NCBI GenBank assembly: GCA_964412895.1 | Contig: CAYPQK010000001.1 | Span: 5,041 to 69,040 of the forward strand | Length of the DNA: 64,000 bases | Reading direction: 5' to 3' | Source: an uncultured Spirochaetales bacterium | Lineage (GTDB): Bacteria; UBP6; UBA1177; JAKLFG01 | In this document: positions 24,963 through 52,464 of the stretch, one piece after another | Numbering within the stretch: position 1 is the first letter of the stretch | Layout of the letters: each line of letters begins with the position of its first letter | Notes under the pieces: model-generated | Databases searched by the model: none | Told to the model about the DNA's origin: nothing | Seen by the model: the letters and a program-made list of their open reading frames with translations, nothing else | Position numbers and translations under genes: made by a program

Positions 24963-25007
24963 CACTCCATTCTATGGTTTTTTTACCAAACGAGGGGGAG
25001 AATGATC

Positions 25008-36539: not shown

Positions 36540-39500
36540 ATGAAGCGTATCGTTGTTGCTCTTATCTGGATTATGTTCCTGTCCCTCGTAGTAGGCGGCT
36601 GTTCCACCAAGGATCAGTGTAACGCCGACACCGACTGCAAGACGGGCTACGCCTGCGGTGACGACAAGAAGTGTCACGAGATACAGGTGGCGCTCCTCTT
36701 CCAGGACATCGCCGACGGTCAGACCCTCACGGTCGCCGACGATCTGGACAAGAGCGACGAGGCCATCCAGATCAATGTCACCGTTGCCGCGCAGGCGACG
36801 GCCGGCTCGATAAAGGACGGCACGGCGATCACCCTCGAGGTGAAGAGTTCCGCGGCCGAGACCTCCGACGGCGACACCGTGAACGGCACCGCCGCGACCG
36901 CGACGAAAAGCTATGCCGGGATACTCGTCAACGGCTTCGCCCGTTTTCTCAATATCCCCTTCGCGGAAGGACAGCATACCGTGACCGCCTATCTGACCCT
37001 GAGTCCCGCCATCAAGGTGACGGCGACCCTCACCGCCACCTATGAACAGACCGATACGCTGGTCATGCGCTACTATAAAGGCGGCACCACTCCGACGATG
37101 CTCGAAGGGGCGACGCTCGACGACAACGACGATCTCAACAAAGAGGCGGCGAATTTTCAGGTGAAAATGGAAGCGGTGACCACCGGGTATGCCGACGGGC
37201 AGGTGGTCGAGATATTCATCGAAGGCTACAGCATCACATGGGCGCCGGCCATCATAGAGGACGGCGTGGCGTCGTTCCCGTCGTTCGTCGTGCCGATATG
37301 GGCCGACATCGTGATGCGGGTGAAGGTGGCCGATGTCGAGGATACGCTCGCCTTCAGCGCCGTTTCGGCGGAGTCCTGCGGCTTTGCGCTCGATATCCAG
37401 AACAACGACCGGTTCGGCATGGCCGACGATACGAGTGCCGGACTCAGCGGTCTCCAGAAGATGCTCACCATCAGCGATGTCACCCTCTGCTCTACCGGTT
37501 CCGAGATAGAGATATACATCGACGGCGTGCCGGGCACCGACGAACCTGACGAAACGCTGACTCTCGGCGCGGCGTCGGTCCAGCAGTCGATCACCCTGCC
37601 CGAAAGCGCGAACCAGACCGATACCCGCACCGTCACGGTGGTGATGAAGGATGACGACAGCTCGGCGACCGGCCAGATGACCGTCACCGGTCTGTTCGTC
37701 GACATCACGGCGCCGACACTGAGTGTCACTGCGCCGCTTGATAACACCACCCTTACCCCGGTCGACGACACCAATACTTCGCTGGAAGGGGTCCAGATAG
37801 CGGTCACCGGTTCGGCATCCGACTCGTTGTCGGACGAGGTCACGGTCGAGGTGCGCGACGGCACGACGCTGTTGGGCGATACGACCGGTACCGGCGACTA
37901 CTCCGTGGACGATGTCTCCTTCACCGCGACCAACGAGGCGCTGACGCTCGCGGTCACCGCCCGCGACGCCATCGGCAACGAAACGGTCGTCGAGGTCCCG
38001 CTCAAGGTCTATGTGAACGATCCGGTGATAGCCTTCCAGACCATCTGCGCCCGGACCCCGGTCATGAATATGCAGCTTTCGTCGGCCGACGACGGCGACC
38101 AGCTCGCCGGCGGCGTCCAGTGCGCCGTCATCGTCCGGACCACCGACATCGAATCGGCCTCGACCGAGGTGTCGCTGAATATCAACGATGAAGATCCGAT
38201 AGTCGAAACGATAGGGACCGGCGGCCTCACGCTGTTCGACATGGTCACCCTGCCCGACGGCGAGGATTCGCTCACGGCCCGGGTCATGCATCTGGGGACC
38301 GCATACCAAACCGGGATCACCGTGCAGGTCGATGCGACCCTGCCGGTGGTGACGCTCACGCTCACCCCGACGGTCGACGGCGGGTTCGCGCAGTCGGTCG
38401 ACGCCGACTTCGCCTTCTCGTGCAGCGAAGCCGATTGCGAATACAGCTACCGTATCGACAGCGGAGCTTTGTCGGCCTACGCGACGACCGCCACCGCCGA
38501 ATACACCGCGCTGGCCGAAGGGCTTCATACCTTCGCCGTTCAGGCCCGCGACCCGTTCGGGAATGTCGGCGATCTGACCGTCTTCAACTGGACGATCGAT
38601 CACACGGCGCCCGCCGCCCCGACGGTGACCGGAGTAACGCCGACCAACGATACGACCCCCGAATGGTCGTGGAACACCCCGACCGGCACGGTCGAATTCC
38701 GTTACAGCACCGACCAGACGAACTGGACGACGACCGCCGTCACCGCCTTCACCCCGGCCCCGGCGCTCGCCGAGGGCGACCAGATACTCTATGTGCAGGG
38801 CCGTGACGCCGCCGGCAACTGGTCGGCGAGCGGATCGTTCACCATCACCATAGACACCACCGCCCTTTCCGCCCCGGTCGTGAGCGGCACCACGCCGACC
38901 AACGACACCACCCCCAAATGGTCGTGGGACGCGATAACCGACGCGGTCGAATATCGCTACAGTTACACCGACGGCTCCGGCTGGACGACGACCGCCGACA
39001 ACTTCTTCATTCCGGTCACGGCGCTCACCGCGGGCGACCACACCCTCTTCGTTCAGGCCCGCGACGCGGCGGAGAACTGGTCCGACAGCGGCTGGTTCAC
39101 CATCACCATAGACCTCACCGCTCCCGCCGCCCCGGAGGTGCTCGGCACCACGCCGACCAACGACACCACGCCGAACTGGTCGTGGATACCGGTCGCCGAC
39201 GCGGTCAACTACCGCTACAGCTACGATGAGATGACTTGGACCGAAACCGTCGATACGACCTTCACCCCGACCACGCAGCTCGCCGCGGGGACTTATACCC
39301 TTTTCGTTCAGGCGCAGGATGCCGCCGGCAACTGGTCGCTTTCGGGATCGAAGGAGGTTGTGATCGACCTGTCGACGCCCAATGCGCCGGTGGTTACCGG
39401 CGTAACGCCGACCACCGATACGACGCCGACCTGGTCATGGGGCGCGGTGACCGACGCGGTCGAATACCGCTACAGTTACACCGACGGCTCCGGCTGGGCG

Positions 39501-42500
39501 ACGACGACCGCTCTTTCCTTCACGCCGTCCGCGGCGCTCGCCGAGGGCTTTGTCACGCTCTTTGTGCAGGCCCGCAACGGCGTCGGCACTTGGTCGGGCA
39601 GCGGGCTTTTCACCATCGAGATAGATATCACCGCCCCGGCGGCGCCGACGGTGACCGGCATAACGCCCACCAGCAACACCCAGCCGACTTGGTCGTGGGA
39701 CACCCCGACCGACGCGGTCGAGTTCCGTTACAGCTACGACGAATCTTCGTGGACCGTTACGACGGCCAATTCTTTTACCCCGGGCAGTGCGCTGATCGAC
39801 GACGCCTATACCCTTTATGTCCAAGCCCGCGACGCGGTCGGCAATTGGTCGACGAGCGGATCGTTCGAGATCGTGGTGGACACCGAGGCGCCGGTCGCGC
39901 CGACGGTGACCGGTACCACGCCGACCAACGACACGACGCCAACTTGGTCGTGGAATACCCCGGTCGGCGCGGTCAACTTCCGCTACAGCTACACCGATGG
40001 ATCGGGCTGGACCGAAACAACCGGCACCAGCTACACCGCCGCCCCGGCCCTTACCGCCGGTACCTACACGCTCTATGTGCAGGCCGCCGACGCTACCGGT
40101 AACTGGTCGACGAGCGGCAGTTTCGCCATCACGATAGACACCACCGCGCCGACGCTGGTTATCGGTGCGCCGTCGGCGACCGTTGCGAAGAACGGGACCG
40201 ATGTGACCTATACCGTCACTTACTCCGGCGCCGACACCGTGACGCTGGCGAACGGCAACATCACGCTCAACGCGACCGGCGGCGCCTCGGGCTCCGTCGC
40301 AGTGACCGGCACCGGCACGGTGACCCGCACCGTGACGATATCGAACCTGACCGGGAACGGCACGCTCGGCATCAGCATCGCGGCCGGAACGGCGAGCGAC
40401 ACGGCGGGGAACACCGCCCTCGCGGCCGGTCCGTCGGCCACCTTCACGGTCGATAACACCGCGCCGACCGTGGTCATCGATCCGGTCAATGCCTGCACCC
40501 GCCGGACGACCGGCACGATCTCGTTCACCGTGACCGGCGCGACCACCACCACCTGCCGGTTCGACACCCCCGCCGGGCTCGGCACACCGGGCGCCTGCGG
40601 CGGCTCCTACGGATATACCCTCGTCGATGGCGACGGCACCTATACCCTCACCGTCACGGCGACCGACGATGCCGGCAACAGCGGCTCGGACGATGCCTTC
40701 TTCTCGCTCAACACCACCACGCCGACCGTCCAGTGGTTCCTGCCGGCCAGCGGCACCAGCTACAAGGCCGGTTCTGCGGTGCCGAGTTTCGTCTACCGCA
40801 CCAAGAACCTCGAGGCGGGCGAAATGGTCGAGATCATAGATGCTGACACCGGACTTGCCTTGGCCAGCGGGATCACCGCCGGATCGCTCTGCAACGCGAC
40901 CGAGGATGTCTCGATACCGCTCGATCTGCCCGACAAGTGCGGCACCTACAAACTCTACGCCAAGGTCAACGACGGCGTCGACTCCGTTGATCGCTACACC
41001 GATAATCTTACGGCACTTCCGGCGACCCAGCGTACCTACACCTTCGACCGCGACGAGCCGGTCATCTCCTCCTTCGTGGTGAATAACGACGCCGACAGCA
41101 ACAATGTCCTCATCTCGACCGAGGATGCCGACGGCATCGCGGGCAACGGGATGCAGGCCGATATCACCATCACGGTACAGGACGCCATCGACATCGGCCG
41201 CACCGTGACGCTCCGCAACAAGACGACCGGCAACACCTACACCGCGACGGTCGTGGGCGATAAAACCGCCACCTTCACCGGCATCACGATACCGGAAGGG
41301 ATCAACTCCTTCGGCGCGACGCTGGTCGACTGCGGCGGCAACACCTCCGCCGAGAGCGCGAAGACCATCACCGTCGATACCACCCCGCCGAGCGTCCTGT
41401 TCCAAGGCCCGACCGGCGTGACGCCGGGCCATCCGCTCTGGCTCACCTCGCGCGATGGCACCGTGGTCGGCGACGAACTGATCGGACAGGAGCTGAAGTT
41501 CAAGATAACGGGCGACTGGGATAACGCCACCCCGGTGGTCAAGCATTTCGTGTACGACTATGCCGATGCGCCCGTGGGTGCGGCCCATACCTATACCCTC
41601 GGCGAAATGGACATCGTCGGCACCGAGGTGAGCATCGACCTCGACGGCTCGGACGATCCCGCCGCGCCGCTCGCCTACAACAAACACAAGTTCGAGATCA
41701 CCGTCGAGGACGCGAACGGCAACATCCGCGTCGCCTCGCGCACCTACGAGGGCGACCCCAAGATCCCGAACGCCGTCATTTCCTATCCGACCGACGAACT
41801 GGTACTCGATGTCACAAAAGATGAGGACGCGGTCGCGTCGGGCGTCCAGTTCACGCTGCACCTCGATCTGACCAAGCTCGCCACCCCGACCGGCACCGAC
41901 TCGACCATCGATATCCTCGCGATACCGATAACGGCGCTCGGCGGCACCGAGGATGGTACCCGCAGCCGCAAATCGTGGAACGGTTTCATCGCCGACACCG
42001 ACGGCGCCGCTCAGACCTTCCCGAACGACGGCACCTTCCTGCGGCTCGGTGACGGCTTCTGGCGCCTGACGGTCAAGGTGACCGACGACCACCAGAATGT
42101 CTACGACACCGCTCTCCTGCCGGTCGCTCAACAGATCGATGTCGATGTGGTGACCGATGTTGCCTCTTCGTCGCTCTATCTCAGTAACGATAAACTCATC
42201 AACGGTACCCAGACCGCCCCGACATGGCTCAACAGCAACGACGGCGGTCCCACCTACGATCTGTATGTCGAGACCGATTCCCCGAACGGCACGAACAACG
42301 CCTGCATAAATGTCAACGCCGGAGGCGACATCTGCGCTGATGTGGACGCCGGCCGTGCCGAATTCACCGCGGTGGCGCTCACCACCGGCGGGGTCGAGAA
42401 CACCATCGTGTTGACGGTCAACAACGGCGTTGCGGTCGCGACCGACACCTACTATGTCCGCGCCGACAACACCGATCCGACGCTCGATCCGGCGACCGAT

Positions 42501-44597
42501 GTCAATCCGGAGCCCTATGTCCACGGCGCCGGTATCTGGGAGATCGGCTACGGTTATGACGACGACATCGACCATGACACCACCGCGATACTCGAACTCG
42601 ACGGCGCCTCGGTGAACCGGCTCATCTTCGTCATCGGCAACATCGAGGATGTGGCGGGCTACACGACCCACGGGACCGTCGTCCTGACCCCGGTCGACGC
42701 GATCGGCGGGACCACCACCGTCAATATCGCCGAGGACGGCGCCGACATGATGGCCGAATTCACGAACCTCACCTTCGAGGACAGCGTCATCGGCGGTCAG
42801 ACCGACATCGAGATGCTGGTGACGATAACCGAACAGCCCTCCGGCAACACCTACACCAAAACGATCTTCGTCCATGTCAATCTGGAGAAACCCGAAGGTA
42901 TCACCCCGACCGTGACCACCGATCCGGCCCGCGGCGAATCTTTCGTTCAGTGGAATGCCGTCGTCGGCAACAATTCGGCCTACGCCGGTGCGTTCCAGAA
43001 CCGCGTGTACGAATATCAGGTGAAGTATGAACAGTATGGCGGCGCCTGTTCGCTCGATGACAGCGAAAGTGCGTTCGACACCGGCGTCGCGATCACTCCG
43101 CTGGCCGACTTCTCGGTGGCCGATCCGTCGCTCAACGGCGATGATTTCGTCGCGCCCAAAGCGGCGGGCGAAGCGCAGAACTACATGTTCTACCTAAAGA
43201 AACGGTCGAATATCGCCCTCACCCAGACCGCCGACATCCACCGGAACGGCGATCCCTACTGCTTCGCGGTCCGCGCCAGCGACGGCATCTATGCGCAGGA
43301 CGGCACGATACTTGTGACAAATACCTCGCCCATCTTGTCTACCAATGTTGTGGATAAGGGAGCGATACAGTTGACCTCTAATGAGCTGATAGCAACGGCC
43401 GCGGGTGCCCATTCAACCATGAATATCAAGAATATGGGCGACATCAACGGCGATACCAAGACCGATTTTGTCATTTCCGATTCGGGTCGGCAGAAAGCGT
43501 ATGTGTTCATCAGCAACGCGGTAGGCGCTCCGACAAAACTGGAACTGGTCAATCCGGTGGATGTCGGTATCACCTCTTTCGGGTATCGTCTCGCCCTCGC
43601 CGACCTTAATGGTGATGGATTCACGGATGTTCTGGTAAGCGATGTCGGCACGAAGAGCATCCATATTTATTATGGTATAGCCAATTCGGTCAATACCGCT
43701 CGCGGCGATAAGATCACCTTTGTCGATACCATATCCGACCTTTCTGGTATCGGCGATTTCAATGGCGACGGATGTCATGATCTTGTTGTCGGGCAGGCAT
43801 CGTATGACGATCCGGGGAATGCGGCCCCCGGCGACCAGACGGGGCGGGCTTTCGTGGTTTATGGTGACGACAAAGGCGCCGCGGGAAAGACCTGCATCGG
43901 CGATTATACTACGCAGGTCGGCGTCTCTTATCTCGGTTCAGCCGCCGGCGAACGGTTCGGATACAATGTCCGGAAAATCGGGAACATCAAGAACGAAATG
44001 AATGGCACCGTGCCCTACGGTTGTTTTGTCGGCGGACATTATGACAATGTCAATCCGGCATCCGCCAAGATCACTAAGGCCAAAGTGTTCTATGGTTCCG
44101 CTGCTCCGGTCGGCGGCAATATCACCTCCTATGATGTCACCGTTAACGGTCTTGCTCAACTTCGCACCCTCTTCTTCGGGAAACTCAACGGTGACGATTT
44201 CTCCGATTTCGGCATCATTGACAGCGGTAAGATAAAATTCTTCTACGGGTCGGCCGCCGGTACCGTTTTCCCGGGCGTATGGACCGAAGGGACCAATCAG
44301 ATCACCCGTAGCGACATCATGGATGAAGTGGCGGGCGTCGAAAGCGGCGTGTGGGGATTGGGCAGTTCCGGATATGCCGAAGATATCAACGACGATGGGC
44401 TGACCGATTTCTTCATCAACGGAGAAAAGGATCAGTATATGTATAGCGGGATGGGCACCTTCTTTACGATGCACCCCGCTCTCTATATGGGTCTTCCCAT
44501 AGGGGCAGGCAGTTCACAGTCGACGATCCTTTCCTACGGACTGGTGGTGTGTAACCGCAACACCGATGCCGGTAATTGTATGTTGTATTATCGTTAA
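36540..44597 (+). CDS. Giant (2693 aa) surface adhesin-like lipoprotein with tandem Ig-like repeats and C-terminal FG-GAP/VCBS repeats
   Basis: GGGAG RBS. Signal plus lipobox VGGC. Six tandem repeats of about 85 aa (TPTNDTTPxWSW...YRYSxxDxxxW...). C-terminal GDxNGDGxxD integrin-alpha-like repeats. Confidence 0.85.
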   Translation: MKRIVVALIWIMFLSLVVGGCSTKDQCNADTDCKTGYACGDDKKCHEIQVALLFQDIADGQTLTVADDLDKSDEAIQINVTVAAQATAGSIKDGTAITLEVKSSAAETSDGDTVNGTAATATKSYAGILVNGFARFLNIPFAEGQHTVTAYLTLSPAIKVTATLTATYEQTDTLVMRYYKGGTTPTMLEGATLDDNDDLNKEAANFQVKMEAVTTGYADGQVVEIFIEGYSITWAPAIIEDGVASFPSFVVPIWADIVMRVKVADVEDTLAFSAVSAESCGFALDIQNNDRFGMADDTSAGLSGLQKMLTISDVTLCSTGSEIEIYIDGVPGTDEPDETLTLGAASVQQSITLPESANQTDTRTVTVVMKDDDSSATGQMTVTGLFVDITAPTLSVTAPLDNTTLTPVDDTNTSLEGVQIAVTGSASDSLSDEVTVEVRDGTTLLGDTTGTGDYSVDDVSFTATNEALTLAVTARDAIGNETVVEVPLKVYVNDPVIAFQTICARTPVMNMQLSSADDGDQLAGGVQCAVIVRTTDIESASTEVSLNINDEDPIVETIGTGGLTLFDMVTLPDGEDSLTARVMHLGTAYQTGITVQVDATLPVVTLTLTPTVDGGFAQSVDADFAFSCSEADCEYSYRIDSGALSAYATTATAEYTALAEGLHTFAVQARDPFGNVGDLTVFNWTIDHTAPAAPTVTGVTPTNDTTPEWSWNTPTGTVEFRYSTDQTNWTTTAVTAFTPAPALAEGDQILYVQGRDAAGNWSASGSFTITIDTTALSAPVVSGTTPTNDTTPKWSWDAITDAVEYRYSYTDGSGWTTTADNFFIPVTALTAGDHTLFVQARDAAENWSDSGWFTITIDLTAPAAPEVLGTTPTNDTTPNWSWIPVADAVNYRYSYDEMTWTETVDTTFTPTTQLAAGTYTLFVQAQDAAGNWSLSGSKEVVIDLSTPNAPVVTGVTPTTDTTPTWSWGAVTDAVEYRYSYTDGSGWATTTALSFTPSAALAEGFVTLFVQARNGVGTWSGSGLFTIEIDITAPAAPTVTGITPTSNTQPTWSWDTPTDAVEFRYSYDESSWTVTTANSFTPGSALIDDAYTLYVQARDAVGNWSTSGSFEIVVDTEAPVAPTVTGTTPTNDTTPTWSWNTPVGAVNFRYSYTDGSGWTETTGTSYTAAPALTAGTYTLYVQAADATGNWSTSGSFAITIDTTAPTLVIGAPSATVAKNGTDVTYTVTYSGADTVTLANGNITLNATGGASGSVAVTGTGTVTRTVTISNLTGNGTLGISIAAGTASDTAGNTALAAGPSATFTVDNTAPTVVIDPVNACTRRTTGTISFTVTGATTTTCRFDTPAGLGTPGACGGSYGYTLVDGDGTYTLTVTATDDAGNSGSDDAFFSLNTTTPTVQWFLPASGTSYKAGSAVPSFVYRTKNLEAGEMVEIIDADTGLALASGITAGSLCNATEDVSIPLDLPDKCGTYKLYAKVNDGVDSVDRYTDNLTALPATQRTYTFDRDEPVISSFVVNNDADSNNVLISTEDADGIAGNGMQADITITVQDAIDIGRTVTLRNKTTGNTYTATVVGDKTATFTGITIPEGINSFGATLVDCGGNTSAESAKTITVDTTPPSVLFQGPTGVTPGHPLWLTSRDGTVVGDELIGQELKFKITGDWDNATPVVKHFVYDYADAPVGAAHTYTLGEMDIVGTEVSIDLDGSDDPAAPLAYNKHKFEITVEDANGNIRVASRTYEGDPKIPNAVISYPTDELVLDVTKDEDAVASGVQFTLHLDLTKLATPTGTDSTIDILAIPITALGGTEDGTRSRKSWNGFIADTDGAAQTFPNDGTFLRLGDGFWRLTVKVTDDHQNVYDTALLPVAQQIDVDVVTDVASSSLYLSNDKLINGTQTAPTWLNSNDGGPTYDLYVETDSPNGTNNACINVNAGGDICADVDAGRAEFTAVALTTGGVENTIVLTVNNGVAVATDTYYVRADNTDPTLDPATDVNPEPYVHGAGIWEIGYGYDDDIDHDTTAILELDGASVNRLIFVIGNIEDVAGYTTHGTVVLTPVDAIGGTTTVNIAEDGADMMAEFTNLTFEDSVIGGQTDIEMLVTITEQPSGNTYTKTIFVHVNLEKPEGITPTVTTDPARGESFVQWNAVVGNNSAYAGAFQNRVYEYQVKYEQYGGACSLDDSESAFDTGVAITPLADFSVADPSLNGDDFVAPKAAGEAQNYMFYLKKRSNIALTQTADIHRNGDPYCFAVRASDGIYAQDGTILVTNTSPILSTNVVDKGAIQLTSNELIATAAGAHSTMNIKNMGDINGDTKTDFVISDSGRQKAYVFISNAVGAPTKLELVNPVDVGITSFGYRLALADLNGDGFTDVLVSDVGTKSIHIYYGIANSVNTARGDKITFVDTISDLSGIGDFNGDGCHDLVVGQASYDDPGNAAPGDQTGRAFVVYGDDKGAAGKTCIGDYTTQVGVSYLGSAAGERFGYNVRKIGNIKNEMNGTVPYGCFVGGHYDNVNPASAKITKAKVFYGSAAPVGGNITSYDVTVNGLAQLRTLFFGKLNGDDFSDFGIIDSGKIKFFYGSAAGTVFPGVWTEGTNQITRSDIMDEVAGVESGVWGLGSSGYAEDINDDGLTDFFINGEKDQYMYSGMGTFFTMHPALYMGLPIGAGSSQSTILSYGLVVCNRNTDAGNCMLYYR
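38600..40140 (+). repeat. Six tandem repeats of about 255 bp (85 aa) inside the giant adhesin gene
   Basis: Repeated protein motif APAAPTVTG(V/T)TPTNDTTPxWSW...(E/N)(F/Y)RYS...FTP..AL..G.YTL(F/Y)VQA(R/Q)DA(A/V)GNWS.SGSF.I.ID. Confidence 0.8.
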
Positions 44598-44611
44598 ATC
44601 GGGAGGAACTG

Positions 44612-44740
44612 ATGTATAAGAAGCCTTGCGTCCTGGAAGAAAAGACCATAGAAAAAAGGATCCTTTTCGCCTGCACCCTTGATACGCCGGAAGACGAGTT
44701 CTGCGTAGACAGCATTTCTACCGCCGGCAGTCAAGGCTGA
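44612..44740 (+). CDS. Small ORF (42 aa) encoding a candidate RiPP precursor peptide (not in the ORF track)
   Basis: GGGAGGAA RBS 5 nt upstream of the ATG. Sequence MYKKPCVLEEKTIEKRILFACTLDTPEDEFCVDSISTAGSQG with 3 Cys. Locally lower GC. Sits 15 nt after the giant gene and 19 nt before the peptidase gene. Confidence 0.5.
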   Translation: MYKKPCVLEEKTIEKRILFACTLDTPEDEFCVDSISTAGSQG

Positions 44741-44759
44741 ACGACTCAGCTTTTCTTCT

Positions 44760-45203
44760 ATGAATAATTTTTCCATCGACGAACTCATTGCAACCTTCTC
44801 TACCGATGGCGGTCTCGGCGTGGTGCTGTTCGGCGCACAGAACTCCATGCTGCCTTCCATTCGCCCCGGAGAACTCATCCACATCGCGCCGGTGGATCGC
44901 GACCGTCTGCGTTCCGGCGATGTGGTGGTCTTCCGCACCGGCGAAGTGCTCGTGGCGCACCGGCTCGTCTGGAAACGCGGCTTCGTCGCGCGGACCAAGG
45001 GCGACAACAATCCCTATTGCGACCCAGCCATACCGGTGTTCGACATCGTCGGCGTGGTCGAAGGAAAGAAGTCGCGGTGGGCGTTCTGCTACTATCTCGT
45101 GCGGAACCGGCTTCGCCACTACACGCCCCGTCCGGCGCGACTGCTGTTCTCGGAGTTGAAGAATAAACTGCTCGGCCGGAAACGGTGGATGGAACACCTA
45201 TGA
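44760..45203 (+). CDS. Clan SF (signal-peptidase I / LexA-like S24/S26) serine peptidase-like protein
   Basis: Motifs GAQNSMLPSIRPGELI, GDVVVFRTGEVLVAHRLVWKRG and VARTKGDNNP resemble the Ser-Lys dyad boxes of S24/S26 peptidases. Its 3' end overlaps the rSAM gene. Confidence 0.55.
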   Translation: MNNFSIDELIATFSTDGGLGVVLFGAQNSMLPSIRPGELIHIAPVDRDRLRSGDVVVFRTGEVLVAHRLVWKRGFVARTKGDNNPYCDPAIPVFDIVGVVEGKKSRWAFCYYLVRNRLRHYTPRPARLLFSELKNKLLGRKRWMEHL

Positions 45204-46213
45204 CCATCAAACGCCCCGGCATCCTTTTCGAGGTGGCGGACCGCTGCGATGCGCGGTGTCTGCACTGTTACCAGCCGCGGGAATGCGCTCACCGGCTCAT
45301 GTCGCTCGCCGAGATCGAACGGGTGCTCGACATCCTTGCCGATAACGAATATCTCGATGTCACCTTCAGCGGCTACGAGCCGTTCACCAATCCCGACCTG
45401 TTCAAGATCATCGAGGCGGCCCGCAAGCGCCGGTTCTTCGTCAATCTCAAGACCAACGGTCTCCATCTCACCGCCGACAATGTCGCGCGGCTGAAGGCGC
45501 TCCATATCGGCACGGTCCATGTCTCCCTCTATTCGCCCGACCGCGATGAACACGACCGCGCCGCCGGTGTCCCCGGGGCGTACGACCGTATCATGACCGG
45601 CCTCGACCTTCTGCGTGAGGCAGGCATAAAGGCCATGCTTGCCGCGCCGCTTTTGCATCCGCTCCCCGATCTCGCGCGGCTCACCGCCTTTGCCAAAGAG
45701 CGCGATCTGCAGCTGGTCATCGACTACGGTTTGTTCAGTTCGTTCGACAAACGGCCCGAAGTCGAGGCGGTGAAGCTGACCGAAGCGGAGCTTGAGACGG
45801 CGATCCGTTTTCAGTACGGCATAGAAGGCGACGAGATGAATTTCTATGCGCCGAAGGAGGCTTCGTTCCTTTGCCACTACGGTGATCCTTCCACTTTCCG
45901 CATAGACTGCGCGGGCGGCATTTATGCCTGCGGCAAATGCACCGTGCCGCTCGGCAACCTGCTGACCGACGATTTTGCCGCGTTGGTGCAGAGGGCGGCG
46001 GCGGAACGGCCGCGCATCATCCGCGACCGGGAATGCAACGACTGCGACCTGTTCCCGTACTGTAGCCCCTGTCCCGCCGAAGCGTTATTGGACGGCGGCT
46101 TTCTCTGCGGCTGTTCGGCGGTACGCAAACGGATCGCCCAGATCAAGCGCCGGATCGGCAGCGCAGGAACAAAAAGGACCGGCGATGCCGCGGAGGGTCC
46201 GTGTCAGGTTTGA
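45185..46213 (+). CDS. Radical SAM enzyme with C-terminal SPASM domain (peptide-modifying maturase-like)
   Basis: CxxxCxxC motif in RCDARCLHCY. A C-terminal Cys cluster (CAGGIYACGKC...CNDCDLFPYCSPC) is typical of SPASM/twitch domains. Confidence 0.85.
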   Translation: MDGTPMTIKRPGILFEVADRCDARCLHCYQPRECAHRLMSLAEIERVLDILADNEYLDVTFSGYEPFTNPDLFKIIEAARKRRFFVNLKTNGLHLTADNVARLKALHIGTVHVSLYSPDRDEHDRAAGVPGAYDRIMTGLDLLREAGIKAMLAAPLLHPLPDLARLTAFAKERDLQLVIDYGLFSSFDKRPEVEAVKLTEAELETAIRFQYGIEGDEMNFYAPKEASFLCHYGDPSTFRIDCAGGIYACGKCTVPLGNLLTDDFAALVQRAAAERPRIIRDRECNDCDLFPYCSPCPAEALLDGGFLCGCSAVRKRIAQIKRRIGSAGTKRTGDAAEGPCQV

Positions 46214-46953
46214 AGACCCGCTGTTTTTCGATAGCAGGCTATCTCCTGAATATATCGTATGCCCCCCGGATGATCTTTCCCGCGCCGTTCCGGTTGTTTG
46301 AGACCGCAACACCGAATGAACTTCTTCTTCCTATAACCACCCAAGAACATTCCGATATCAACGACATTCGACGAGTCAACGGCGCATGGCGGATATCACG
46401 GCACCGGCCGTACCTCTATCTGCCCAAAGTGCTGGCCTACGAAGGCTTCGAGCGCGAGGAACTGTTCCTGCTCGTCCATTCCTGCTTTCTTGTTGATCGA
46501 GGGGGATGGAGCCATCTCTTTCTCGCCACTTCGGGGACCGGGAAGAGTACGTTGGCCCGCAAGATGCGCGGCCTCATGACCGGCGGCAACGACGAGACCA
46601 ATGTCCTCTGCCGTCGCGCCGGTATTCTTTACGGTTATTCGACCCCCTTCTACACGATATCGAAGCTCAAGAACGCCGTCATCTCCAATATCTCCGCGCC
46701 GCTCAAACGGGTCTATCTCCTGCGCAAGACCGAAGAGCCGTCGCGTATCGGTGAGCCGGTCGCCGGAGATGTACTGTGGCGCTATCTGGTCGAGGGACAG
46801 GTGAGCACACCGTACAGTAAACGCGAATATTTTTCCGCCTACCACCGCATGGTGAACGACCTCTGCGACTGCCACCCCGTCCATCCTTTCCATCACAACT
46901 TGACCGATCCGCCCGAACGGATCGCGGCGCTCCTCGAAAGCGGCGACCGGTAA
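46201..46953 (+). CDS. HPr kinase/phosphorylase-like (HprK C-terminal domain) P-loop protein
   Basis: P-loop LATSGTGKSTLA in an HprK-like context. GTG start overlapping the rSAM stop. Exact start uncertain (alternative ATG at 46270). Confidence 0.55.
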   Translation: MSGLKTRCFSIAGYLLNISYAPRMIFPAPFRLFETATPNELLLPITTQEHSDINDIRRVNGAWRISRHRPYLYLPKVLAYEGFEREELFLLVHSCFLVDRGGWSHLFLATSGTGKSTLARKMRGLMTGGNDETNVLCRRAGILYGYSTPFYTISKLKNAVISNISAPLKRVYLLRKTEEPSRIGEPVAGDVLWRYLVEGQVSTPYSKREYFSAYHRMVNDLCDCHPVHPFHHNLTDPPERIAALLESGDR

Positions 46954-46973
46954 AACATACTAAAAGAATCGTT

Positions 46974-47031
46974 AGTAGGCCCCGGCCTACTTGTTGTCGA
47001 TAGGCGTCGGCCTACAAGTGTTGCTTTTTTG
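46974..47031 (+). terminator. Probable rho-independent terminator ending the PqqD-to-HprK-like operon
   Basis: Two GC hairpins (GTAGGccccggCCTAC and TAGGCgtcgGCCTA) followed by TTGCTTTTTT. Confidence 0.45.
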
Positions 47032-47132
47032 ATTGCGGAGATTACTTCTTAGAATCATAGAGCTTTTCTATTAAAGATCATCAAGGATGTTTATTTGCAG
47101 AGTATTTTCAAGCTGTTATAACATTTTTTCTG

Positions 47133-47161
47133 TTGACAAAGTTCCCTTACGAGGATATGCT
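47133..47161 (+). promoter_or_regulatory. Sigma70-like promoter upstream of the second small peptide ORF
   Basis: TTGACA, 17 nt spacer, TATGCT. Confidence 0.45.
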
Positions 47162-47202
47162 TGCGCTGTTTTGTTTGTTGAAAAAAGATATTTTTTGAAA
47201 TC

Positions 47203-47352
47203 ATGATGAATTCTCGCGGCTACGAAAAACCGGTTATAATTGAAGAACTCGTACTGGAAAAAGAACTTCTCTTTGCCTGCCTTTTTCATAACCGGAATCA
47301 GTGCGAACCTATCTGCCGCAACCCCGGGCAAAGCGCTGGGGAGCCTTGTTGA
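47203..47352 (+). CDS. Small ORF (49 aa), second candidate precursor peptide paralogous to 44612..44740 (not in the ORF track)
   Basis: MMNSRGYEKPVIIEELVLEKELLFACLFHNRNQCEPICRNPGQSAGEPC. Shares Y-x-K-P-x-[VI]-[LI]-E-E-x-x-[IL]-E-K-x-[IL]-L-F-A-C with the first peptide. 4 Cys. Lies in an AT-rich intergenic region. No clear SD. Confidence 0.42.
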   Translation: MMNSRGYEKPVIIEELVLEKELLFACLFHNRNQCEPICRNPGQSAGEPC

Positions 47353-47441: not shown

Positions 47442-48593
47442 ATGAAGAAGAACGCCGGAAATGAAAAAACGACCATACTTATAGTGGAAGACGATCCCGG
47501 ACTATCGAAGCTCATCGACATCTCTCTCAAAGCTCACGGGTGGGGAACGATAGCGGCCTTTTCGGGCGAAGAGGCGTTGGCGATGTCCCGGGACCGGCGG
47601 CCGCGGCTGATCCTCCTTGACTACTCACCCCCCGATATGTCGGGGTCCGACTTCATCGACGCCGCCGAACGGATAGCGTTCCCGTTGCCCCCTTTTATAG
47701 TGGCGACCGGCCGCGGAGACGAACGGATAGCGGTCGAGATGATGAAACGGGGCGCCCGCGACTACATCGTCAAGGATTCTCAGTTCCTCAACACTTTGAG
47801 CATAGCGGTCGAACGGGTATTGGAACAACTGGAAACGGAGCGGCGGCTGAAAGAGACCGAACGACTCCTGCGGGAACACGACGCGGCGCTCATCGCCTCC
47901 CGGGAACAGCTCCAGATATTCGCCGAACGGTTGCTCATCGTACCGGAACAGGAGCGGGCCCGCATCGCCCGCGAGATCCACGACCTGTTGGCGCAGGACC
48001 TGATCCGCCTGAAGATAGATCTGGTCTGGCTGAACGGACAGTTCGCCAAGATGACCCCGCTTCCCGTTCTTCTCAAAGAACGGGTCGTCGAGATGATCCA
48101 GATAGCGGACGGCGCGATCACCTGCGTGCAAAAGATCGCCACCGAACTGCGTCCGGCGGTGCTCGACAGTCTCGGGCTGTGCGCCGCGGTGGAATGGCAG
48201 GCCCGTGAATTTCAGGAACGGACCGGCATTCAGTGTCTGGTGAAAGTGCCGGAAAAAGATCTTCCGGTGGACAGGGATTTCACTATTGCCATTTTTCGTA
48301 TCCTGCAGGAGAGTCTGACCAATGTACGGCGGCACGCCAACGCAACGCGGGTGGATGTCCTGCTACGGCAAAAGGCCGGATATCTGTTCCTCAGGGTACA
48401 GGATAACGGATCCGGCATAACACCGACGGCGCTCCACGATCCGCTTTCCATCGGGCTTACCGGTATGCGGGAGCGGGCGGTGCTTCTCGGTGGTCGGATC
48501 GAGATCACCGGCAAGCCGGGGGCGGGGACGACGGTCGAGGTCCGGTTGCCGCTTTCGAAAATAGGAAAAAAACGGGAGGCGGCTCCGTTATGA
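47442..48593 (+). CDS. Hybrid REC-HisKA_3-HATPase_c sensor kinase (NarL-partner type, no extracytoplasmic sensor)
   Basis: N-terminal receiver ILIVEDDP...LLDYSPPDM. HisKA_3 H-box ERARIAREIHDLLAQ. HATPase G-box. Confidence 0.85.
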   Translation: MKKNAGNEKTTILIVEDDPGLSKLIDISLKAHGWGTIAAFSGEEALAMSRDRRPRLILLDYSPPDMSGSDFIDAAERIAFPLPPFIVATGRGDERIAVEMMKRGARDYIVKDSQFLNTLSIAVERVLEQLETERRLKETERLLREHDAALIASREQLQIFAERLLIVPEQERARIAREIHDLLAQDLIRLKIDLVWLNGQFAKMTPLPVLLKERVVEMIQIADGAITCVQKIATELRPAVLDSLGLCAAVEWQAREFQERTGIQCLVKVPEKDLPVDRDFTIAIFRILQESLTNVRRHANATRVDVLLRQKAGYLFLRVQDNGSGITPTALHDPLSIGLTGMRERAVLLGGRIEITGKPGAGTTVEVRLPLSKIGKKREAAPL

Positions 48594-49213
48594 ATATTCT
48601 GATCGCGGACGATCATGCCATTGTGCGGAAAGGGTTAGCCCAACTTTTGGTCGACGAGTTCCCCGGCGTGTCGATCGGCGAGACCGCCGGCACGCAGGAA
48701 ACGCTGGCCGAGCTGTCGCTCCGGCGGTGGGATGTATTGGTGCTCGACATCTTCATGCCGGGGTCCGGCGGACTCACGGTGCTTGACGAAGTGAAGCGCC
48801 AACAGCCGCGACTGCCGGTGCTGGTCCTGAGCACCGCGCCGGAAGAACAGATGGCGGCCCGGGTCCTGAAAGCGGGGGCGAGCGGCTATCTCAATAAACA
48901 GTGCGCTCCCGAGGAATTGGTCAATGCGGTCAGAAAGATACTCGCTCACGGCCGCTATGTCAGCGTCACGATGGCGGAACGGCTCGCCGCCGATATCGGC
49001 CGGCCCGAACGATCCCTGCAGGAAGAACTCTCCGATAGGGAATACACCGTCCTACGGATGCTCGTGGCGGGCAGATCGATCAAAGATATCGCGGCCGAAC
49101 TGAATATCAGCCCGAAAACGGTGAGTACCTTCCACACCCGGATATGGGGCAAGCTCCGCGTCACCAACGACGCCGACATGGTCCGTTACGCGCTGGATCA
49201 CGGCATCTCCTGA
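48590..49213 (+). CDS. NarL/LuxR-family response regulator (REC plus HTH_LuxR)
   Basis: ILIADDH...VLVLDIFMPG receiver. C-terminal LuxR HTH LSDREYTVLRMLVAGRSIKDIAAELNISPKTVSTF. ATGA overlap with the upstream kinase. Confidence 0.9.
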   Translation: MNILIADDHAIVRKGLAQLLVDEFPGVSIGETAGTQETLAELSLRRWDVLVLDIFMPGSGGLTVLDEVKRQQPRLPVLVLSTAPEEQMAARVLKAGASGYLNKQCAPEELVNAVRKILAHGRYVSVTMAERLAADIGRPERSLQEELSDREYTVLRMLVAGRSIKDIAAELNISPKTVSTFHTRIWGKLRVTNDADMVRYALDHGIS

Positions 49214-49341
49214 CCGTTTCACGCTCTTCGTAAGCGCAATCCTACAAAAGAAAAGGCGTCGTCCTACAGAAAAGCGACCGTGAAAAAGATATTCTGTTCC
49301 CAGTGAGGTGAATGGTCCGGGAATGGAAAATGGAGGTCGTC

Positions 49342-50850
49342 ATGAAAGGAATTGTTGGGCTTGGCGCATGGTTGATGGCGGTTATGTTCGTCTCCTCCTG
49401 TGGGGGCGAGGAGCCGGAGCAGGAGGTTTTCGTTTCGCTTTCCGGCCGCACCGCGACGGCGCTCGCCACGGTAAGCAATATCATAGAGGTCAATCAGAAA
49501 GCGGCCAACTTCGGCATTGCGGTCACCTCGGTGGGCGATGTGAACGGTGACGGTTATGGCGATGTGGCCGTCGGGGCCAATTTTTATGACAACGGGCAGA
49601 TCGACGAGGGGATGCTGTTCATCTATCACGGAACGGCGACCGGGATCAAGACCGCCTATGCCATACGGCTCGAATCGAATCAAAAGGATGCCCGTCTCGG
49701 CTGGTCGGTCGCCTCTGCGGGCGATGTGAACGGCGACGGCTACGGCGATATGATCGTCAGCGCGTACCGGTACGACAGCGGCCAGACCGACGAAGGAGTG
49801 GCGTTCGTATATCACGGTTCTGCGACCGGCATCGGTCCTGTCTACGCCCGACGGCTCGAAGTTGATCAGGCGAACGCCTCTTTCGGCATTTCGGTCGCGG
49901 CGGCGGGCGATGTGAACGGCGACGGCTACGGTGATGTGATCGTCGGTGCCTTCTTGTACGACAACGGACAGAACGACGAAGGGGCCGCCTTCATCTATCA
50001 CGGATCGGCGACCGGCATCGGTGCGCAGTATGCCCGGAGACTGGAAATGGATCAGGCGGGCGCGTGGTTCGGTTATTCGGTCGCGTCGACGGGTGATGTG
50101 AACGGCGACGGGTACGACGATGTGGTCGTCGGCGCTTTTCTGTACAACAACGGACAGAACGACGAAGGGGCCGCGTTCATCTATCATGGTTCGGCGACCG
50201 GCATCGGCACGACTGCGGACCGCAGGATCGAACCGGATCAGGCGGGCGCCTACTTCGGCTATTCGGTCGCGTCGGCGGGCGATGTGAACGGCGACGGCTT
50301 CGACGATGTGGTCGTCGGCGCTTATTTGTACGACCACGGACAGACCGACGAAGGAGCCGCTTTTATGTATCACGGCTCGGCGAATGGCTGCGGTACGGTA
50401 TACGACCGGATGATCGAACCGGATCAGGCGGGAGCGAATTTCGGCGCCGCGGTCGCGTCGGCGGGCGATGTGAACGGTGACGGGTACGGCGATGTGGTCG
50501 TCGGCGCCCGCTCGTATGACGGCAACAAGACCGACGAGGGGGCCGTTTTCATCTATCGCGGCTCGGCTAACGGCCTGAATGTAGCGACGAACCAGATGTT
50601 CGAATCGAATCAGGCGGATGCCTTTTTCGGCCGGTCGGTCGCGTCGGCGGGCGACATGAACGGCGACGGCTACGGCGATGTGCTGGTGGGGGCAAGTCTG
50701 TACGATAACGGCCAATATGACGAAGGCGCCGCGTTCTTCTATCACGGTTCGTCGTCCGGGCTCTGTATAGGCCGTTGCCCGGAAGATAGCGGCACTTCCA
50801 GCGAAACGACAACGGAACTCTCCTCCCCTCCCAAAAATAAGCGGCACTAA
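49342..50850 (+). CDS. FG-GAP repeat (integrin-alpha-like 7-bladed beta-propeller) lipoprotein
   Basis: GGAGG RBS. Signal plus lipobox VSSCG. Seven about 61-aa repeats with GDVNGDGYGDVxVGA...DEGAAFIYHGSATG. Confidence 0.8.
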   Translation: MKGIVGLGAWLMAVMFVSSCGGEEPEQEVFVSLSGRTATALATVSNIIEVNQKAANFGIAVTSVGDVNGDGYGDVAVGANFYDNGQIDEGMLFIYHGTATGIKTAYAIRLESNQKDARLGWSVASAGDVNGDGYGDMIVSAYRYDSGQTDEGVAFVYHGSATGIGPVYARRLEVDQANASFGISVAAAGDVNGDGYGDVIVGAFLYDNGQNDEGAAFIYHGSATGIGAQYARRLEMDQAGAWFGYSVASTGDVNGDGYDDVVVGAFLYNNGQNDEGAAFIYHGSATGIGTTADRRIEPDQAGAYFGYSVASAGDVNGDGFDDVVVGAYLYDHGQTDEGAAFMYHGSANGCGTVYDRMIEPDQAGANFGAAVASAGDVNGDGYGDVVVGARSYDGNKTDEGAVFIYRGSANGLNVATNQMFESNQADAFFGRSVASAGDMNGDGYGDVLVGASLYDNGQYDEGAAFFYHGSSSGLCIGRCPEDSGTSSETTTELSSPPKNKRH

Positions 50851-50862: not shown

Positions 50863-51486
50863 GTGAAGATATTGATCGCGGATGATCATGCGGTCGTGCG
50901 GAAAGGATTGGCCCGTCTTCTGGTCGACGAATTTCCCGATGTAACGATAGGCGAAGCCTCCGATTCTCAGGAAACGCTGAACGAGATATCCTTTCAACGG
51001 TGGGACCTGCTGGTGCTCGATCTTTTCATGCCGGGGATCGGCGGATCGGCGGTGCTCGACGAAGTGCGCCGGCTGTATCCGAAAATGCCGGTGCTGATTC
51101 TCAGCACCGCGCCGGAAGAACAGATGGCGGCGCGGATGCTTAAAGCGGGCGCGAACGGCTATCTCAACAAACAGTGCGCTCCCGAAGAGTTGGTGGGCGC
51201 GGTCAGAAAGGTTCTGGCGGGCGGCCGGTATGTCAGTTCCGGCATGGCGGAGCGGTTGGCCGAACAGATGGACCGCACCAGAAAAAGTCCGCAGGAAGAG
51301 CTCTCCGACCGGGAATACACCGTACTACGGGCGTTGGTCGCGGGCAGATCGGTCCGAGACATAGCGCAGGAATTGGGCATCAGCCCCAAAACGGTCAGTA
51401 CTTTTCACACCCGGATCTGGCGCAAACTGGGCGTCCGAAACGATGCCGACATGATCCGCTATGCACTGGGAAAAGGGTGGTCCTGA
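50863..51486 (+). CDS. NarL/LuxR-family response regulator, paralog (about 75% aa identity) of 48590..49213
   Basis: Same architecture and near-identical motif blocks (STAPEEQMAAR, GYLNKQCAPEEL, LSDREYTVLR, ISPKTVSTFHTRIW). Confidence 0.9.
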   Translation: MKILIADDHAVVRKGLARLLVDEFPDVTIGEASDSQETLNEISFQRWDLLVLDLFMPGIGGSAVLDEVRRLYPKMPVLILSTAPEEQMAARMLKAGANGYLNKQCAPEELVGAVRKVLAGGRYVSSGMAERLAEQMDRTRKSPQEELSDREYTVLRALVAGRSVRDIAQELGISPKTVSTFHTRIWRKLGVRNDADMIRYALGKGWS

Positions 51487-51561: not shown

Positions 51562-52434
51562 ATGAACCAGCTTAAAATATACACCGCACTGCGGGATGCG
51601 CAGTTCGAGAATCAGGTACATGCGCTCATCCACGCCAACGATCACGAGGCTCATCAGATACATCTCGACGACATCATCAACGATGTGCGGGCCTATGACG
51701 GCCTGTTCATCGTCGAGGAGAGTTATCACGGCATCCTTGAACTGATAGAGTTCCACAATTCCTGTAAATTCAATCTCTTGCCGGTCATCTTCGTGTTCGA
51801 TCCCAAATCGCCTGACAAAGAATGGGTGAACTCTGTTCGCTATCCCTATAAATACTTTGCCGTCGAGCACAAACTGTTGCCGCTCCTGTTCACCCGCATC
51901 GTCGCCCACATGGACGAACTGCGGCGCACCAAATTCAACGAATTCGTCCTTGAGCACCACAAACCGGTGCTGGAACCGTTCTTCAACGAGAAGCTCTCGT
52001 TCCGCGGGGCGTTGGGGCAGGCGCTCGCTCATCTGCTCGACTTCCTGTTCGCCGATAAGGGGTCCATCATGCTCCTCAACGACAAGGGGAATCTCGTCAT
52101 CGAGGCGTCGACCAAACCGCACCTCATCGGGCTGGAGGTGGTGCCCGATCCCAACTCGCCCGCGTGGAGCGTCATGGAAACGAAAAAGCCGTTGTTCGTC
52201 GAGGACATCTCGAAGGATCAGCGTTTCAAGAAGAAAAGCGACGGCTACAGCAAGGATTACTTTCTCATCGTCCCGATATTCTTGAACGGCGAGATCCACG
52301 GCGTGCTCAATCTCACCGACAAGATGGTGTCGCTCTTCTTCGACCGGAGCGACCTCCTGCGTGCCCGGAATTTTCTGCGGCTGTTGGAGCCGATGCTCGC
52401 CCTTCATAGCGGCATAGCGGTAGATATAACCTGA
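51562..52434 (+). CDS. GAF domain protein with degenerate N-terminal receiver-like region
   Basis: C-terminal GAF-like block GSIMLLNDKGNLVIEAS...PLFVEDISKDQRF...HGVLNLTDK. Confidence 0.6.
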   Translation: MNQLKIYTALRDAQFENQVHALIHANDHEAHQIHLDDIINDVRAYDGLFIVEESYHGILELIEFHNSCKFNLLPVIFVFDPKSPDKEWVNSVRYPYKYFAVEHKLLPLLFTRIVAHMDELRRTKFNEFVLEHHKPVLEPFFNEKLSFRGALGQALAHLLDFLFADKGSIMLLNDKGNLVIEASTKPHLIGLEVVPDPNSPAWSVMETKKPLFVEDISKDQRFKKKSDGYSKDYFLIVPIFLNGEIHGVLNLTDKMVSLFFDRSDLLRARNFLRLLEPMLALHSGIAVDIT

Positions 52435-52464
52435 TATCGTGGCCGTCTCTGGGGAGGGGCGTAG

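Follow-up and report, generated by a model that had tools for sequence, protein, structure and literature searches.

A predicted cytoplasmic S26B-type serine peptidase without membrane anchor, probably an LppS-like leader peptidase of a radical SAM pathway outside the Bacillota

Introduction

The proteases known to remove the leader in RiPP pathways were listed in a 2023 review as cysteine proteases, metalloproteases, serine proteases of families S8 and S9 and a few others, with no S24/S26 enzyme among them, and leader peptidases of the S24/S26 type are likewise unmentioned in the RRE-Finder papers and in the radical SAM compendium. An enzyme of this kind has since been described: LppS, a 151-aa SipW-like and recognition-element-dependent leader peptidase of the linear polyphosphorylated peptide (LPP) RiPPs of Bacillota (PMC13381572, Nat Commun, May 2026). 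LppS cuts the leader after T-1 of YxxPxVLxHQxIxFET, only when the discrete recognition element LppB, which is contacted by a helix of the peptidase, is present; the cleavage depends on positions -1 to -3 and -10 of the leader, activity is abolished by the substitutions S29A, H68A or D93A, and the product is linear (PMC13381572). The authors, who used SipW as the housekeeping comparator, state that such peptidases were previously undescribed in RiPP pathways and that LPPs are restricted to Bacillota (PMC13381572). [quoted passage not shown]

A comparable division of labor is found in lasso peptide biosynthesis, where B1, a discrete recognition element of the PqqD type, binds leaders of the YxxP type and offers them to B2, a dedicated cytoplasmic peptidase which, unlike the enzyme dealt with here, is a cysteine protease of the unrelated transglutaminase fold. 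Concerning the other members of clan SF, the S24 proteins (LexA, UmuD, lambda cI) and the S26A enzymes (LepB, SpsB) share a beta-barrel and a Ser nucleophile placed in an SM-like box; the former cleave themselves and are attached to DNA-binding or polymerase-accessory domains, and the latter are anchored in the membrane. Finally, the SynChlorMet cassette (SCM; TIGR04248-TIGR04251), on which a literature search found no paper, combines ScmC-family (PF27840), PqqD-family and radical SAM/SPASM parts.

The locus described here lies in a stretch of 64,000 nucleotides (hereafter "the window") from an uncultured Spirochaetales bacterium. Its initial annotation proposed that one of its genes encodes a leader peptidase of the S24/S26 type and regarded such an enzyme as unusual for RiPP clusters; the idea that it would be unprecedented there is outdated since the description of this very class in PMC13381572 (May 2026).

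The gene cassette

The peptidase gene belongs to a cassette whose features, all genes being on the forward strand, are the following:

36084..36488, + strand: PqqD-family protein that probably serves as the discrete recognition element of a RiPP pathway (Pfam PqqD at E=1e-11, exceeding the gathering score)
36516..44597, + strand: giant predicted lipoprotein of ~2690 aa containing Ig-like repeats and, towards the C-terminus, an FG-GAP region (open reading frame, N-terminal signal)
44612..44740, + strand: precursor peptide A, 42 aa, MYKKPCVLEEKTIEKRILFACTLDTPEDEFCVDSISTAGSQG (Shine-Dalgarno-like motif, orthologues, leader motif)
44760..45203, + strand: S26B-type serine peptidase without transmembrane (TM) segment, 147 aa (fold, catalytic residues, homologues)
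44844-44846, 44958-44960, 45003-45005 and 45021-45023, + strand: codons of the predicted catalytic residues Ser29, His67, Asp82 and Asp88, respectively (read from the sequence)
45200..46213, + strand: radical SAM enzyme whose C-terminal part carries a SPASM-like cluster of Cys, CNDCDLFPYCSPC (Pfam Radical_SAM, E=4e-23)
46201..46953, + strand: ScmC-like P-loop protein (SGTGKST), possibly an HprK-like kinase (homologues with PF27840 ScmC)
47133-47161: promoter-like site 5' of the peptide B gene (sequence signal)
47203..47352, + strand: precursor peptide B, 49 aa as called, MMNSRGYEKPVIIEELVLEKELLFACLFHNRNQCEPICRNPGQSAGEPC (leader motif, orthologues)

The PqqD-family protein, whose true start may be the internal Met35 near position 36186, also gives sub-threshold NCBIfam matches to PqqD, GeoRSP PqqD, ScmD and lasso PqqD. 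Its gene is followed by that of the giant lipoprotein, whose N-terminal signal contains a VGGC lipobox-like motif and which stands between the PqqD gene and the peptide A gene; the orthologues of the giant protein have Big_13 and FG-GAP Pfam matches and are always encoded upstream of a peptide gene. At its C-terminus the giant protein carries a hydrophobic-C-x6-8-C motif resembling that of the peptides. Peptide A, preceded by a GGGAGGA Shine-Dalgarno-like motif 5 nt 5' of its ATG, contains two Cys, a leader of the form Y-x-K-P-x-[VIL] and the conserved motif LLF-x-C. A hairpin (44733-44753) in the gap between the peptide A and peptidase genes was considered as an attenuator and rejected, being unconserved in the orthologous loci and only ~1.8 sd below shuffles.

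The SPASM-like cluster of the radical SAM enzyme has the pattern CxxCx5CxxC, and the best NCBIfam matches of the protein are radical SAM/SPASM maturases of peptides and cofactors, all far below their cut-offs. The longest open reading frame of this gene starts at GTG 45185 and only in this case does it overlap the peptidase gene by 19 nt, as initially annotated. All four orthologues checked (L002, L009, L010 and L012) begin with MTIKR from an in-frame ATG, so that the start in the window is more likely ATG 45200, with the overlap reduced to the 4 nt of an ATGA stop/start that couples the peptidase and radical SAM genes.

The ScmC-like protein matches TIGR04249 ScmC at E=5.5e-4 and is possibly related to HprK-type kinases, as suggested by weak hits: HprK_rel_A at E=0.019 for the protein itself, Hpr_kinase_C (E=2e-4) and HprK_rel_A (E=1.2e-5) for its relatives and, when its profile is compared with the PDB, HprK at E ~3e-3 among many P-loop matches; the structure model has a pLDDT of 42. 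Peptide B has a leader of the same type as peptide A and four Cys, and orthologues of it occur in L002, L009, L010 and L012. Downstream of the cassette there are genes for two-component regulators and for FG-GAP, GAF, HAD-ATPase and GGDEF proteins.

The ScmC-family, PqqD-family and radical SAM/SPASM parts are what the window has in common with SCM. On the other hand, the window has one radical SAM enzyme instead of two (ScmE/ScmF) and its cassette additionally has an S26B-like peptidase and identifiable precursors; furthermore, the scores in the window remain far below the SCM cut-offs, amounting to 19.4 of 125 bits for ScmC, 22.5 of 100 for ScmD, 50.4 of 400 for ScmE and 50.7 of 400 for ScmF.

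Fold, membrane anchor and catalytic residues of the peptidase

The open reading frame 44760..45203 is a real gene. It is the longest possible in its own frame, so that a hidden N-terminal extension is impossible, and its product has 20 homologues (44-80% identity) all of similar length, the two for which a source name is available being both annotated as "S24/S26 family peptidase". Open reading frames that overlap the gene on the opposite strand are without support and are a usual by-product of ~58% G+C.

Several comparisons bear on the fold. The Pfam family Peptidase_S24 matches the protein just below its curated cut-off (E=1.3e-4), and the curated sequence family nearest to it is the archaeal/ER-type signal peptidase I represented by NCBIfam TIGR02228, whose cut-off of 51.85 bits is narrowly missed (48.1 bits, E=1.1e-12); by sequence, the nearest solved structures are SEC11A/C, the catalytic subunits of the human signal peptidase complex. 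A model of moderate quality (pLDDT 72.4), obtained with AlphaFold2 from the 20-sequence alignment, has a beta-barrel core superimposable on the LexA C-domain or signal peptidase I, and the top Foldseek matches of this model belong all to clan SF, those with LexA and SipA being the highest. Taken together, these family matches and the predicted structure confirm the clan SF (S24/S26) fold that the initial annotation had suggested and proposed to verify by structure prediction; its LexA/S24 flavor, instead, gives way to the archaeal/ER-type signal peptidases as the nearest families in sequence.

The absence of a membrane anchor, also proposed initially, is borne out by a 19-residue hydropathy scan, which found no TM segment in the peptidase: its highest Kyte-Doolittle window has a value of 1.19 and corresponds to the beta-strand running into Ser29, whereas nine genuine archaeal-type signal peptidases subjected to the same scan reach 1.7-2.8 near the N-terminus. 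The place where the TM helix would stand is occupied in the model by a short N-terminal helix (residues 6-14), and the C-terminus is modeled as two basic helices, poorly defined and of lower confidence. The protein resembles the archaeal/ER-type signal peptidases I (S26B: SEC11A/C, SipW) in its SM-x-P, HR and (T)KGDNN motifs and in a downstream Asp, and differs from them in having the two basic C-terminal helices but not the N-terminal anchor and in being encoded within a peptide-modification cassette instead of a protein-secretion context. It is predicted to be a cytoplasmic, anchor-free S26B member of clan SF.

The active site can be read from the alignments. Ser29, contained in the sequence NSMLPS, aligns with the nucleophile of both SEC11 and LppS, so that the Ser box recognized initially (NSMLPSI) stands. 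The same does not hold for the Lys box, sought by the initial annotation in VAHRLVWKRG/ARTKGD, because the general-base position is occupied by His67 (VAHRLV, compared with IVHRV in SEC11A and VAHRF in LppS) and Lys73 (VWKRG) is replaced among the homologues, where K, R, E, T and I are found; Lys80, which is invariant, is the counterpart of the structural Lys that SEC11, too, has in its TKGDNN box. Asp82 matches a further conserved acidic residue of SEC11, and altogether S29, H67, D82 and D88 align with the positions of the SEC11A catalytic set, which by our own count on the human sequence we take to be S56, H96, D116 and D122. All four belong to the residues invariant in the 20 homologues (S29, M30, P32, H67, R68, K80, G81, D82, N83, N84, C87 and D88). 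The alignment, which the initial annotation had proposed as a check, failed to find the Ser/Lys dyad of S24/S26A in the peptidase and revealed in its stead the Ser, the His base within an HR motif and the conserved Asp of S26B. The predicted catalytic set is Ser29/His67/Asp88, together with Asp82, in the S26B arrangement of the ER, archaeal and SipW-type enzymes, and it is in this respect that the protein departs from the S24 and S26A enzymes, which have in common with it the barrel and the Ser nucleophile.

Comparison with LppS and the LPP pathway

The sequences of LppS and of six homologues were taken from the supplement of PMC13381572. The window peptidase is 33% identical to LppS over a 79-residue core (BLASTP E=4e-8), and hhalign yields a probability of 95.9% with LppS and, family to family, of 98.6% with the seven LppS homologues (E=1.1e-15). 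The essential residues S29, H68 and D93 of LppS align with Ser29, His67 and Asp88; the two proteins, both of ~150 aa and TM-less, therefore have Ser/His/Asp at nearly equal positions and, in addition, the N-terminal helix of the window model (residues 6-14) is found where LppS has its recognition-element helix.

Two observations place the enzyme at some distance from LppS. The profile of the window peptidase family scores the LppS homologues (34-49 bits) no higher than housekeeping archaeal-type signal peptidases (30-56 bits), which means that the TM-less, PqqD-linked lifestyle could be convergent, and the pairwise E-value of 4e-8 falls short of the edges that define the LppS cluster in the published network (E<1e-23; PMC13381572). 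For these reasons we file the window peptidase as a distant homologue that would work like LppS and that lies outside both the LppS sequence cluster and the LPP gene clusters.

Concerning the pathways, a discrete PqqD-type element, an HprK-like or ScmC-like P-loop protein and precursors with a YxxPx[VIL] motif are encoded in both, and one cassette related to that of the window (L026) has a PF14907 nucleotidyltransferase, an enzyme of the same general kind as the LPP NTP transferase. Nevertheless, the gene content is not that of an LPP cluster: the pathway of the window has a radical SAM/SPASM enzyme and Cys-rich cores, its ScmC-like protein is only weakly HprK-like, and a scan covering part of the window ORFs detected close to the cluster neither an MsbA-like exporter nor a nucleotidyltransferase. 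The hosts also differ, those of the window type being uncultured lineages outside the Bacillota.

Precursor peptides and leader recognition

Orthologues of peptide A occur 3' of the giant gene in L002, L009, L010, L004, L014, L006 and L015, and L012 has only a short tblastn match at this position. The 12 precursors collected from the cassette loci share the sequence M-x-Y-x-K-P-x-[VIL]-[VIL]-x-E-E, followed after ~six residues by LL[FY]-x-C and then by variable cores containing two to five Cys. All 12 thus have, as Y-x-K-P-x-[VIL], an N-terminal motif of the type [Y/W]xxPx[L/V/I/F/A], and its Tyr and Pro are invariant when the precursors are aligned jointly with those of the LPPs.

Discrete recognition elements of the PqqD type bind the leaders of lasso peptides and LPPs through the motif Y-x-x-P-x-[L/V/I], and in the case of LppB residues N33 and D70 hold the kink at the Pro and form hydrogen bonds with the Tyr of this motif (PMC13381572). 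The PqqD-family protein of the window is 26% identical to LppB (E=1e-7), and its Asn70 and Asp111 align with these two residues.

The stretch between YxxP and the conserved aromatic residue is ~4 residues longer than in the LPPs. The site at which a leader might be cut is less clearly indicated. If the spacing from the Tyr were that of the LPPs, P1 would be a bulky Ile or Leu; if similarity to the LPP motif (aromatic at -3, small at -1) is followed instead, P1 would be the invariant Cys, 3 of the 12 precursors misfitting the aromatic -3.

Conservation across lineages

The genes for the giant protein, peptide, peptidase, radical SAM enzyme and ScmC-like protein recur together in MAGs of unclassified bacteria (L002/L011, L009, L010 and L012), and the cassette is found also in Spirochaetales-labeled MAGs (L004/L013/L014) and in a third group (L006/L015/L026); one host has TolB/TonB/OmpA neighbor genes. 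Altogether, at least five lineages have the peptide, peptidase, radical SAM and ScmC genes together, arranged in three orders, namely peptide-peptidase-rSAM-(peptide)-ScmC, peptide-ScmC-rSAM-peptidase and peptide-ScmC-rSAM-methyltransferase-peptidase(-nucleotidyltransferase). A linkage that survives this shuffling of the genes argues for a shared function. Across these lineages the peptidase is 57-80% identical and the radical SAM enzyme down to 32%; the PqqD gene is part of the same gene string as the peptidase in the window, in L002 and in L011. A second radical SAM gene of L002 was considered as a cassette member and discarded, since it belongs to an AmmeMemoRadiSam system, and a longer paralogue of the peptidase (P0020/L008, L016) occurs outside any such cassette.

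A wider profile search in 1.84 billion cluster representatives produced 15,649 matches at E<1e-3, 519 at E<1e-10 and about six at E<1e-27, numbers which place the window peptidase in a narrow subfamily of a family that is itself very large. Among the best 148 representatives, 82% are without a TM-like window, SM-x-P is present in 142 and the [H]R[hydrophobic] motif downstream of it in 138. The genomic contexts of seven more distant relatives were looked up and six were informative, the contig of the seventh (P0069) being too short at 963 bp. One of the six (P0021) is a giant-lipoprotein cassette with radical SAM and ScmC genes, near which no PqqD gene was found within the stretch fetched. Outside the giant-lipoprotein cassette, all five informative contexts (P0026, P0034, P0027, P0041 and P0127) have a PqqD gene adjacent to that of the peptidase or at most two genes away, accompanied in three of them by a radical SAM gene and in one by an ScmC gene; in P0127 the order is peptidase-ScmC-PqqD-rSAM/SPASM. 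Co-localization with a discrete recognition element of the PqqD family is thus found both in the window and among these relatives.

Proposed role of the peptidase

The linkage conserved through gene shuffling, the translational coupling with the radical SAM gene, the PqqD-type protein, the leaders of the YxxP type and the homology to LppS favor, as the initial annotation had suggested, a role in leader removal. On these grounds it is probable that the peptidase is an LppS-like leader peptidase of a RiPP-like radical SAM pathway outside the Bacillota. The 8 kb of the giant gene, by which the PqqD gene is separated from that of the peptidase, count against this assignment. The constant association of the cassette with a giant secreted lipoprotein is left unexplained by it.

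According to the mechanism that we propose, the PqqD-type protein (36084..36488) would bind peptides A and B, the presumed substrates, by their N-terminal Y-x-K-P-x-[VIL] motif, and the radical SAM/SPASM enzyme would modify the Cys-containing core, probably by cross-linking, as its family suggests; the ScmC-like P-loop protein may act too, possibly as a kinase phosphorylating the peptide. The complex of PqqD protein and leader would then present the region around LL[FY]-x-C to the peptidase, by which the leader would be removed in the way LppS does with LppB, the peptidase being in this scheme dependent on the PqqD protein and the order of the steps a putative one.

A second possibility, which we judge unlikely although it fares better than the remaining ones, is that the enzyme belongs to the pathway and cuts the peptide elsewhere, that is at a C-terminal follower, within the core or in the course of degradation of the product (immunity or turnover). 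The small-residue motifs at the C-termini of the precursors (TAGS, TASE, GQSA/GQSE) would suit the preference of S26 enzymes for small residues at -1 and -3, and the leader/core junction offers no uniform small -1 residue unless the invariant Cys is P1; nevertheless, LppS, the sole characterized homologue, removes an N-terminal leader, and it is the N-terminal YxxP leader and the PqqD linkage that are kept across the wider clade.

Distinctly less probable is that we are dealing with a dedicated SipW-like signal peptidase acting on the giant FG-GAP lipoprotein or on further FG-GAP proteins that are secreted, as SipW does on TasA/TapA, the substrates with which it shares an operon. The archaeal-type signal peptidase I/SipW is indeed the nearest curated family, and in the narrow subfamily the peptidase gene always adjoins that of a giant secreted protein. 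However, an enzyme without TM anchor (1.19 in the hydropathy scan against 1.7-2.8 for the archaeal-type enzymes) should be unable to bring its active site to the trans side of the membrane; the lipobox-type signal of the giant protein would make it a substrate of signal peptidase II; and the more distant relatives lacking the giant gene keep PqqD, radical SAM or both.

The precedent of TraF, an S26-type enzyme that cyclizes the TrbC pilin, could also suggest a transpeptidase or cyclase, the fold being common to S26 peptidases and the substrates being short peptides; yet TraF is a bacterial-type Ser/Lys enzyme and the window peptidase a predicted Ser/His one, nothing points to head-to-tail cyclization and the LppS product is linear, so that a role of this type appears very improbable. 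Least credible of all is a self-cleaving regulatory module like LexA/UmuD or, after the model of S. pyogenes SipA, a scaffold devoid of catalytic activity since, in spite of LexA and SipA being the top structural matches and of the sub-threshold Peptidase_S24 match, the protein has no DNA-binding domain, its general base is His and not the Lys of S24, its nearest sequence families are signal peptidases and not S24, and the invariance of all its catalytic residues argues against a dead scaffold.

Implications

With the class of signal-peptidase-like leader peptidases already known from LppS (2026), the leader peptidase predicted here would be an uncharacterized variant and not the first of its kind; what appears to be new is that it is paired with a radical SAM/SPASM enzyme and occurs outside the Bacillota, how large the clade of TM-less, PqqD-linked enzymes is, and that the operon encloses a giant adhesin gene. 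A more general proposition, which at present we hold as speculative and rather doubtful, is that the TM-less S26B peptidases are a large class of leader peptidases, distributed across phyla and dependent on recognition elements, which would serve radical SAM/SPASM (SCM-like) peptide pathways in addition to the phosphorylated linear peptides of Bacillota, and that in this subfamily the pathway may be functionally tied to the giant FG-GAP lipoprotein. The modified peptide could be, in this connection, a ligand, cofactor or partner of this integrin-like (FG-GAP) surface lipoprotein.

Should these propositions be true, the signal-peptidase-like leader peptidase would be spread much more widely than one peptide family of Bacillota, reaching the radical SAM pathways of uncultured diderms, and would constitute a useful marker for the genome mining of RiPP clusters as well as a source of new sequence-specific proteases for peptide engineering. 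Cassettes of the SynChlorMet type, so far precursor-less, would gain both candidate substrates and a processing enzyme, and the adhesin gene of 8 kb that the operon encloses is a hint that the product may have a role at the cell surface.

The giant lipoprotein gene and its C-terminal tail

The giant lipoprotein, which combines Ig-like repeats with FG-GAP sequences, is encoded by an 8-kb gene embedded in the string of peptide-modification genes (window 36084..47352), having the PqqD gene on one side and the first precursor gene on the other. At all loci of the subfamily, the peptide gene begins within ~10–25 nt of the stop of the giant gene.

The C-terminal end of the protein is conserved at the equivalent position in L002 (from an unclassified MAG), L004 (from a Spirochaetales-labelled MAG) and L006 (from the third group):

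Window 44520..44597: conserved C-terminal end of the giant protein

In these three loci and in the window the final ~20 residues conform to Y-G-L-V-[VI]-C-[ND]-R-N-x-D-x-G-[ND]-C, so that the tail contains a hydrophobic-C-x6-8-C motif whose loop is polar or acidic. This motif resembles the cores of the small peptides, LLF-x-C-x6-9-C. The likeness could be accidental, or the tail could form a disulfide hairpin or serve as a second substrate.

The start of the ScmC-like protein and candidate expression signals

The NCBI gene call assigns 227 aa to the ScmC-like protein, with Met24 as the start. The 23-residue N-terminal extension beginning at GTG 46201 (window 46201..46270) shows protein-level conservation in three orthologous loci from unclassified MAGs (L009, L010 and L012), which suggests that the longer version is genuine.

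Three sites resembling expression signals are found within the cassette:

Window 44733..44753: terminator-like hairpin with an 8-pair stem and a T-rich tail behind it
Window 47133..47161: sigma-70-like promoter match (10/12 positions) directly upstream of peptide B
Window 36469..36497: sigma-70-like promoter match (11/12 positions) directly upstream of the giant gene

The hairpin is placed after the peptide A stop and before the start of the peptidase gene; hairpins between the precursor and the next gene are seen in many RiPP operons. Its stability is only ~1.8 sd above that of shuffled sequence, and comparison with the orthologous loci revealed no conservation. The promoter match preceding the giant gene falls within the 3′ end of the PqqD gene.

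Cassette variants and a longer peptidase paralogue

Two loci of the third group, L006 and L026, encode additional enzymes. A longer form of the peptidase (175–202 aa, with an extended C-terminus) is encoded in L008 and L016:

L006 6851..8011 and L026 6791..7936: PrmA/PRMT-like methyltransferase, flanked by the rSAM gene and the peptidase gene
L026 8494..9480: PF14907 nucleotidyltransferase, additional to the methyltransferase
L008 3750..4358 and L016 8001..8324: longer peptidase paralogue

The nucleotidyltransferase is of the same general enzyme kind as the NTP transferase of the linear polyphosphorylated peptide (LPP) and paeninodin-type clusters. The longer paralogue lies outside any rSAM cassette, its neighbours in L008 including an OLD-like AAA/TOPRIM protein and a PilZ protein, and one MAG possesses both this paralogue and the cassette peptidase, L012 and L016 belonging to the same assembly.

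Other large ORFs in the window

A 741-aa ORF (window 25002..27227) matches the Pfam Disintegrin domain (E=2.5e-20), which is uncommon in bacteria. Two large ORFs are located near it:

Window 1175..3643: Kelch
Window 6495..8507: bacterial TSP3 repeats

Signalling genes downstream of the cassette

The cassette is followed by these genes:

Window 47442..48593: hybrid receiver/histidine kinase
Window 48590..49213: LuxR-type response regulator, 207 aa
Window 49312..50850: secreted FG-GAP repeat protein, 512 aa
Window 50863..51486: LuxR-type response regulator, 207 aa
Window 51562..54144: GAF protein and HAD/P-type-ATPase-like protein

The two response regulators, which flank the FG-GAP protein, are very similar to each other, and the kinase gene stands immediately upstream of this regulator/FG-GAP/regulator set.

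The GAF and HAD/P-type-ATPase-like proteins are also neighbours of the cassette, on its downstream side, in the Spirochaetales-labelled loci L004, L013 and L014 (49% and 40% identity, respectively), where they are followed by histidine kinase and GGDEF genes. Since these two genes are kept beside the cassette in the latter loci, a c-di-GMP or signalling module seems to travel with it.
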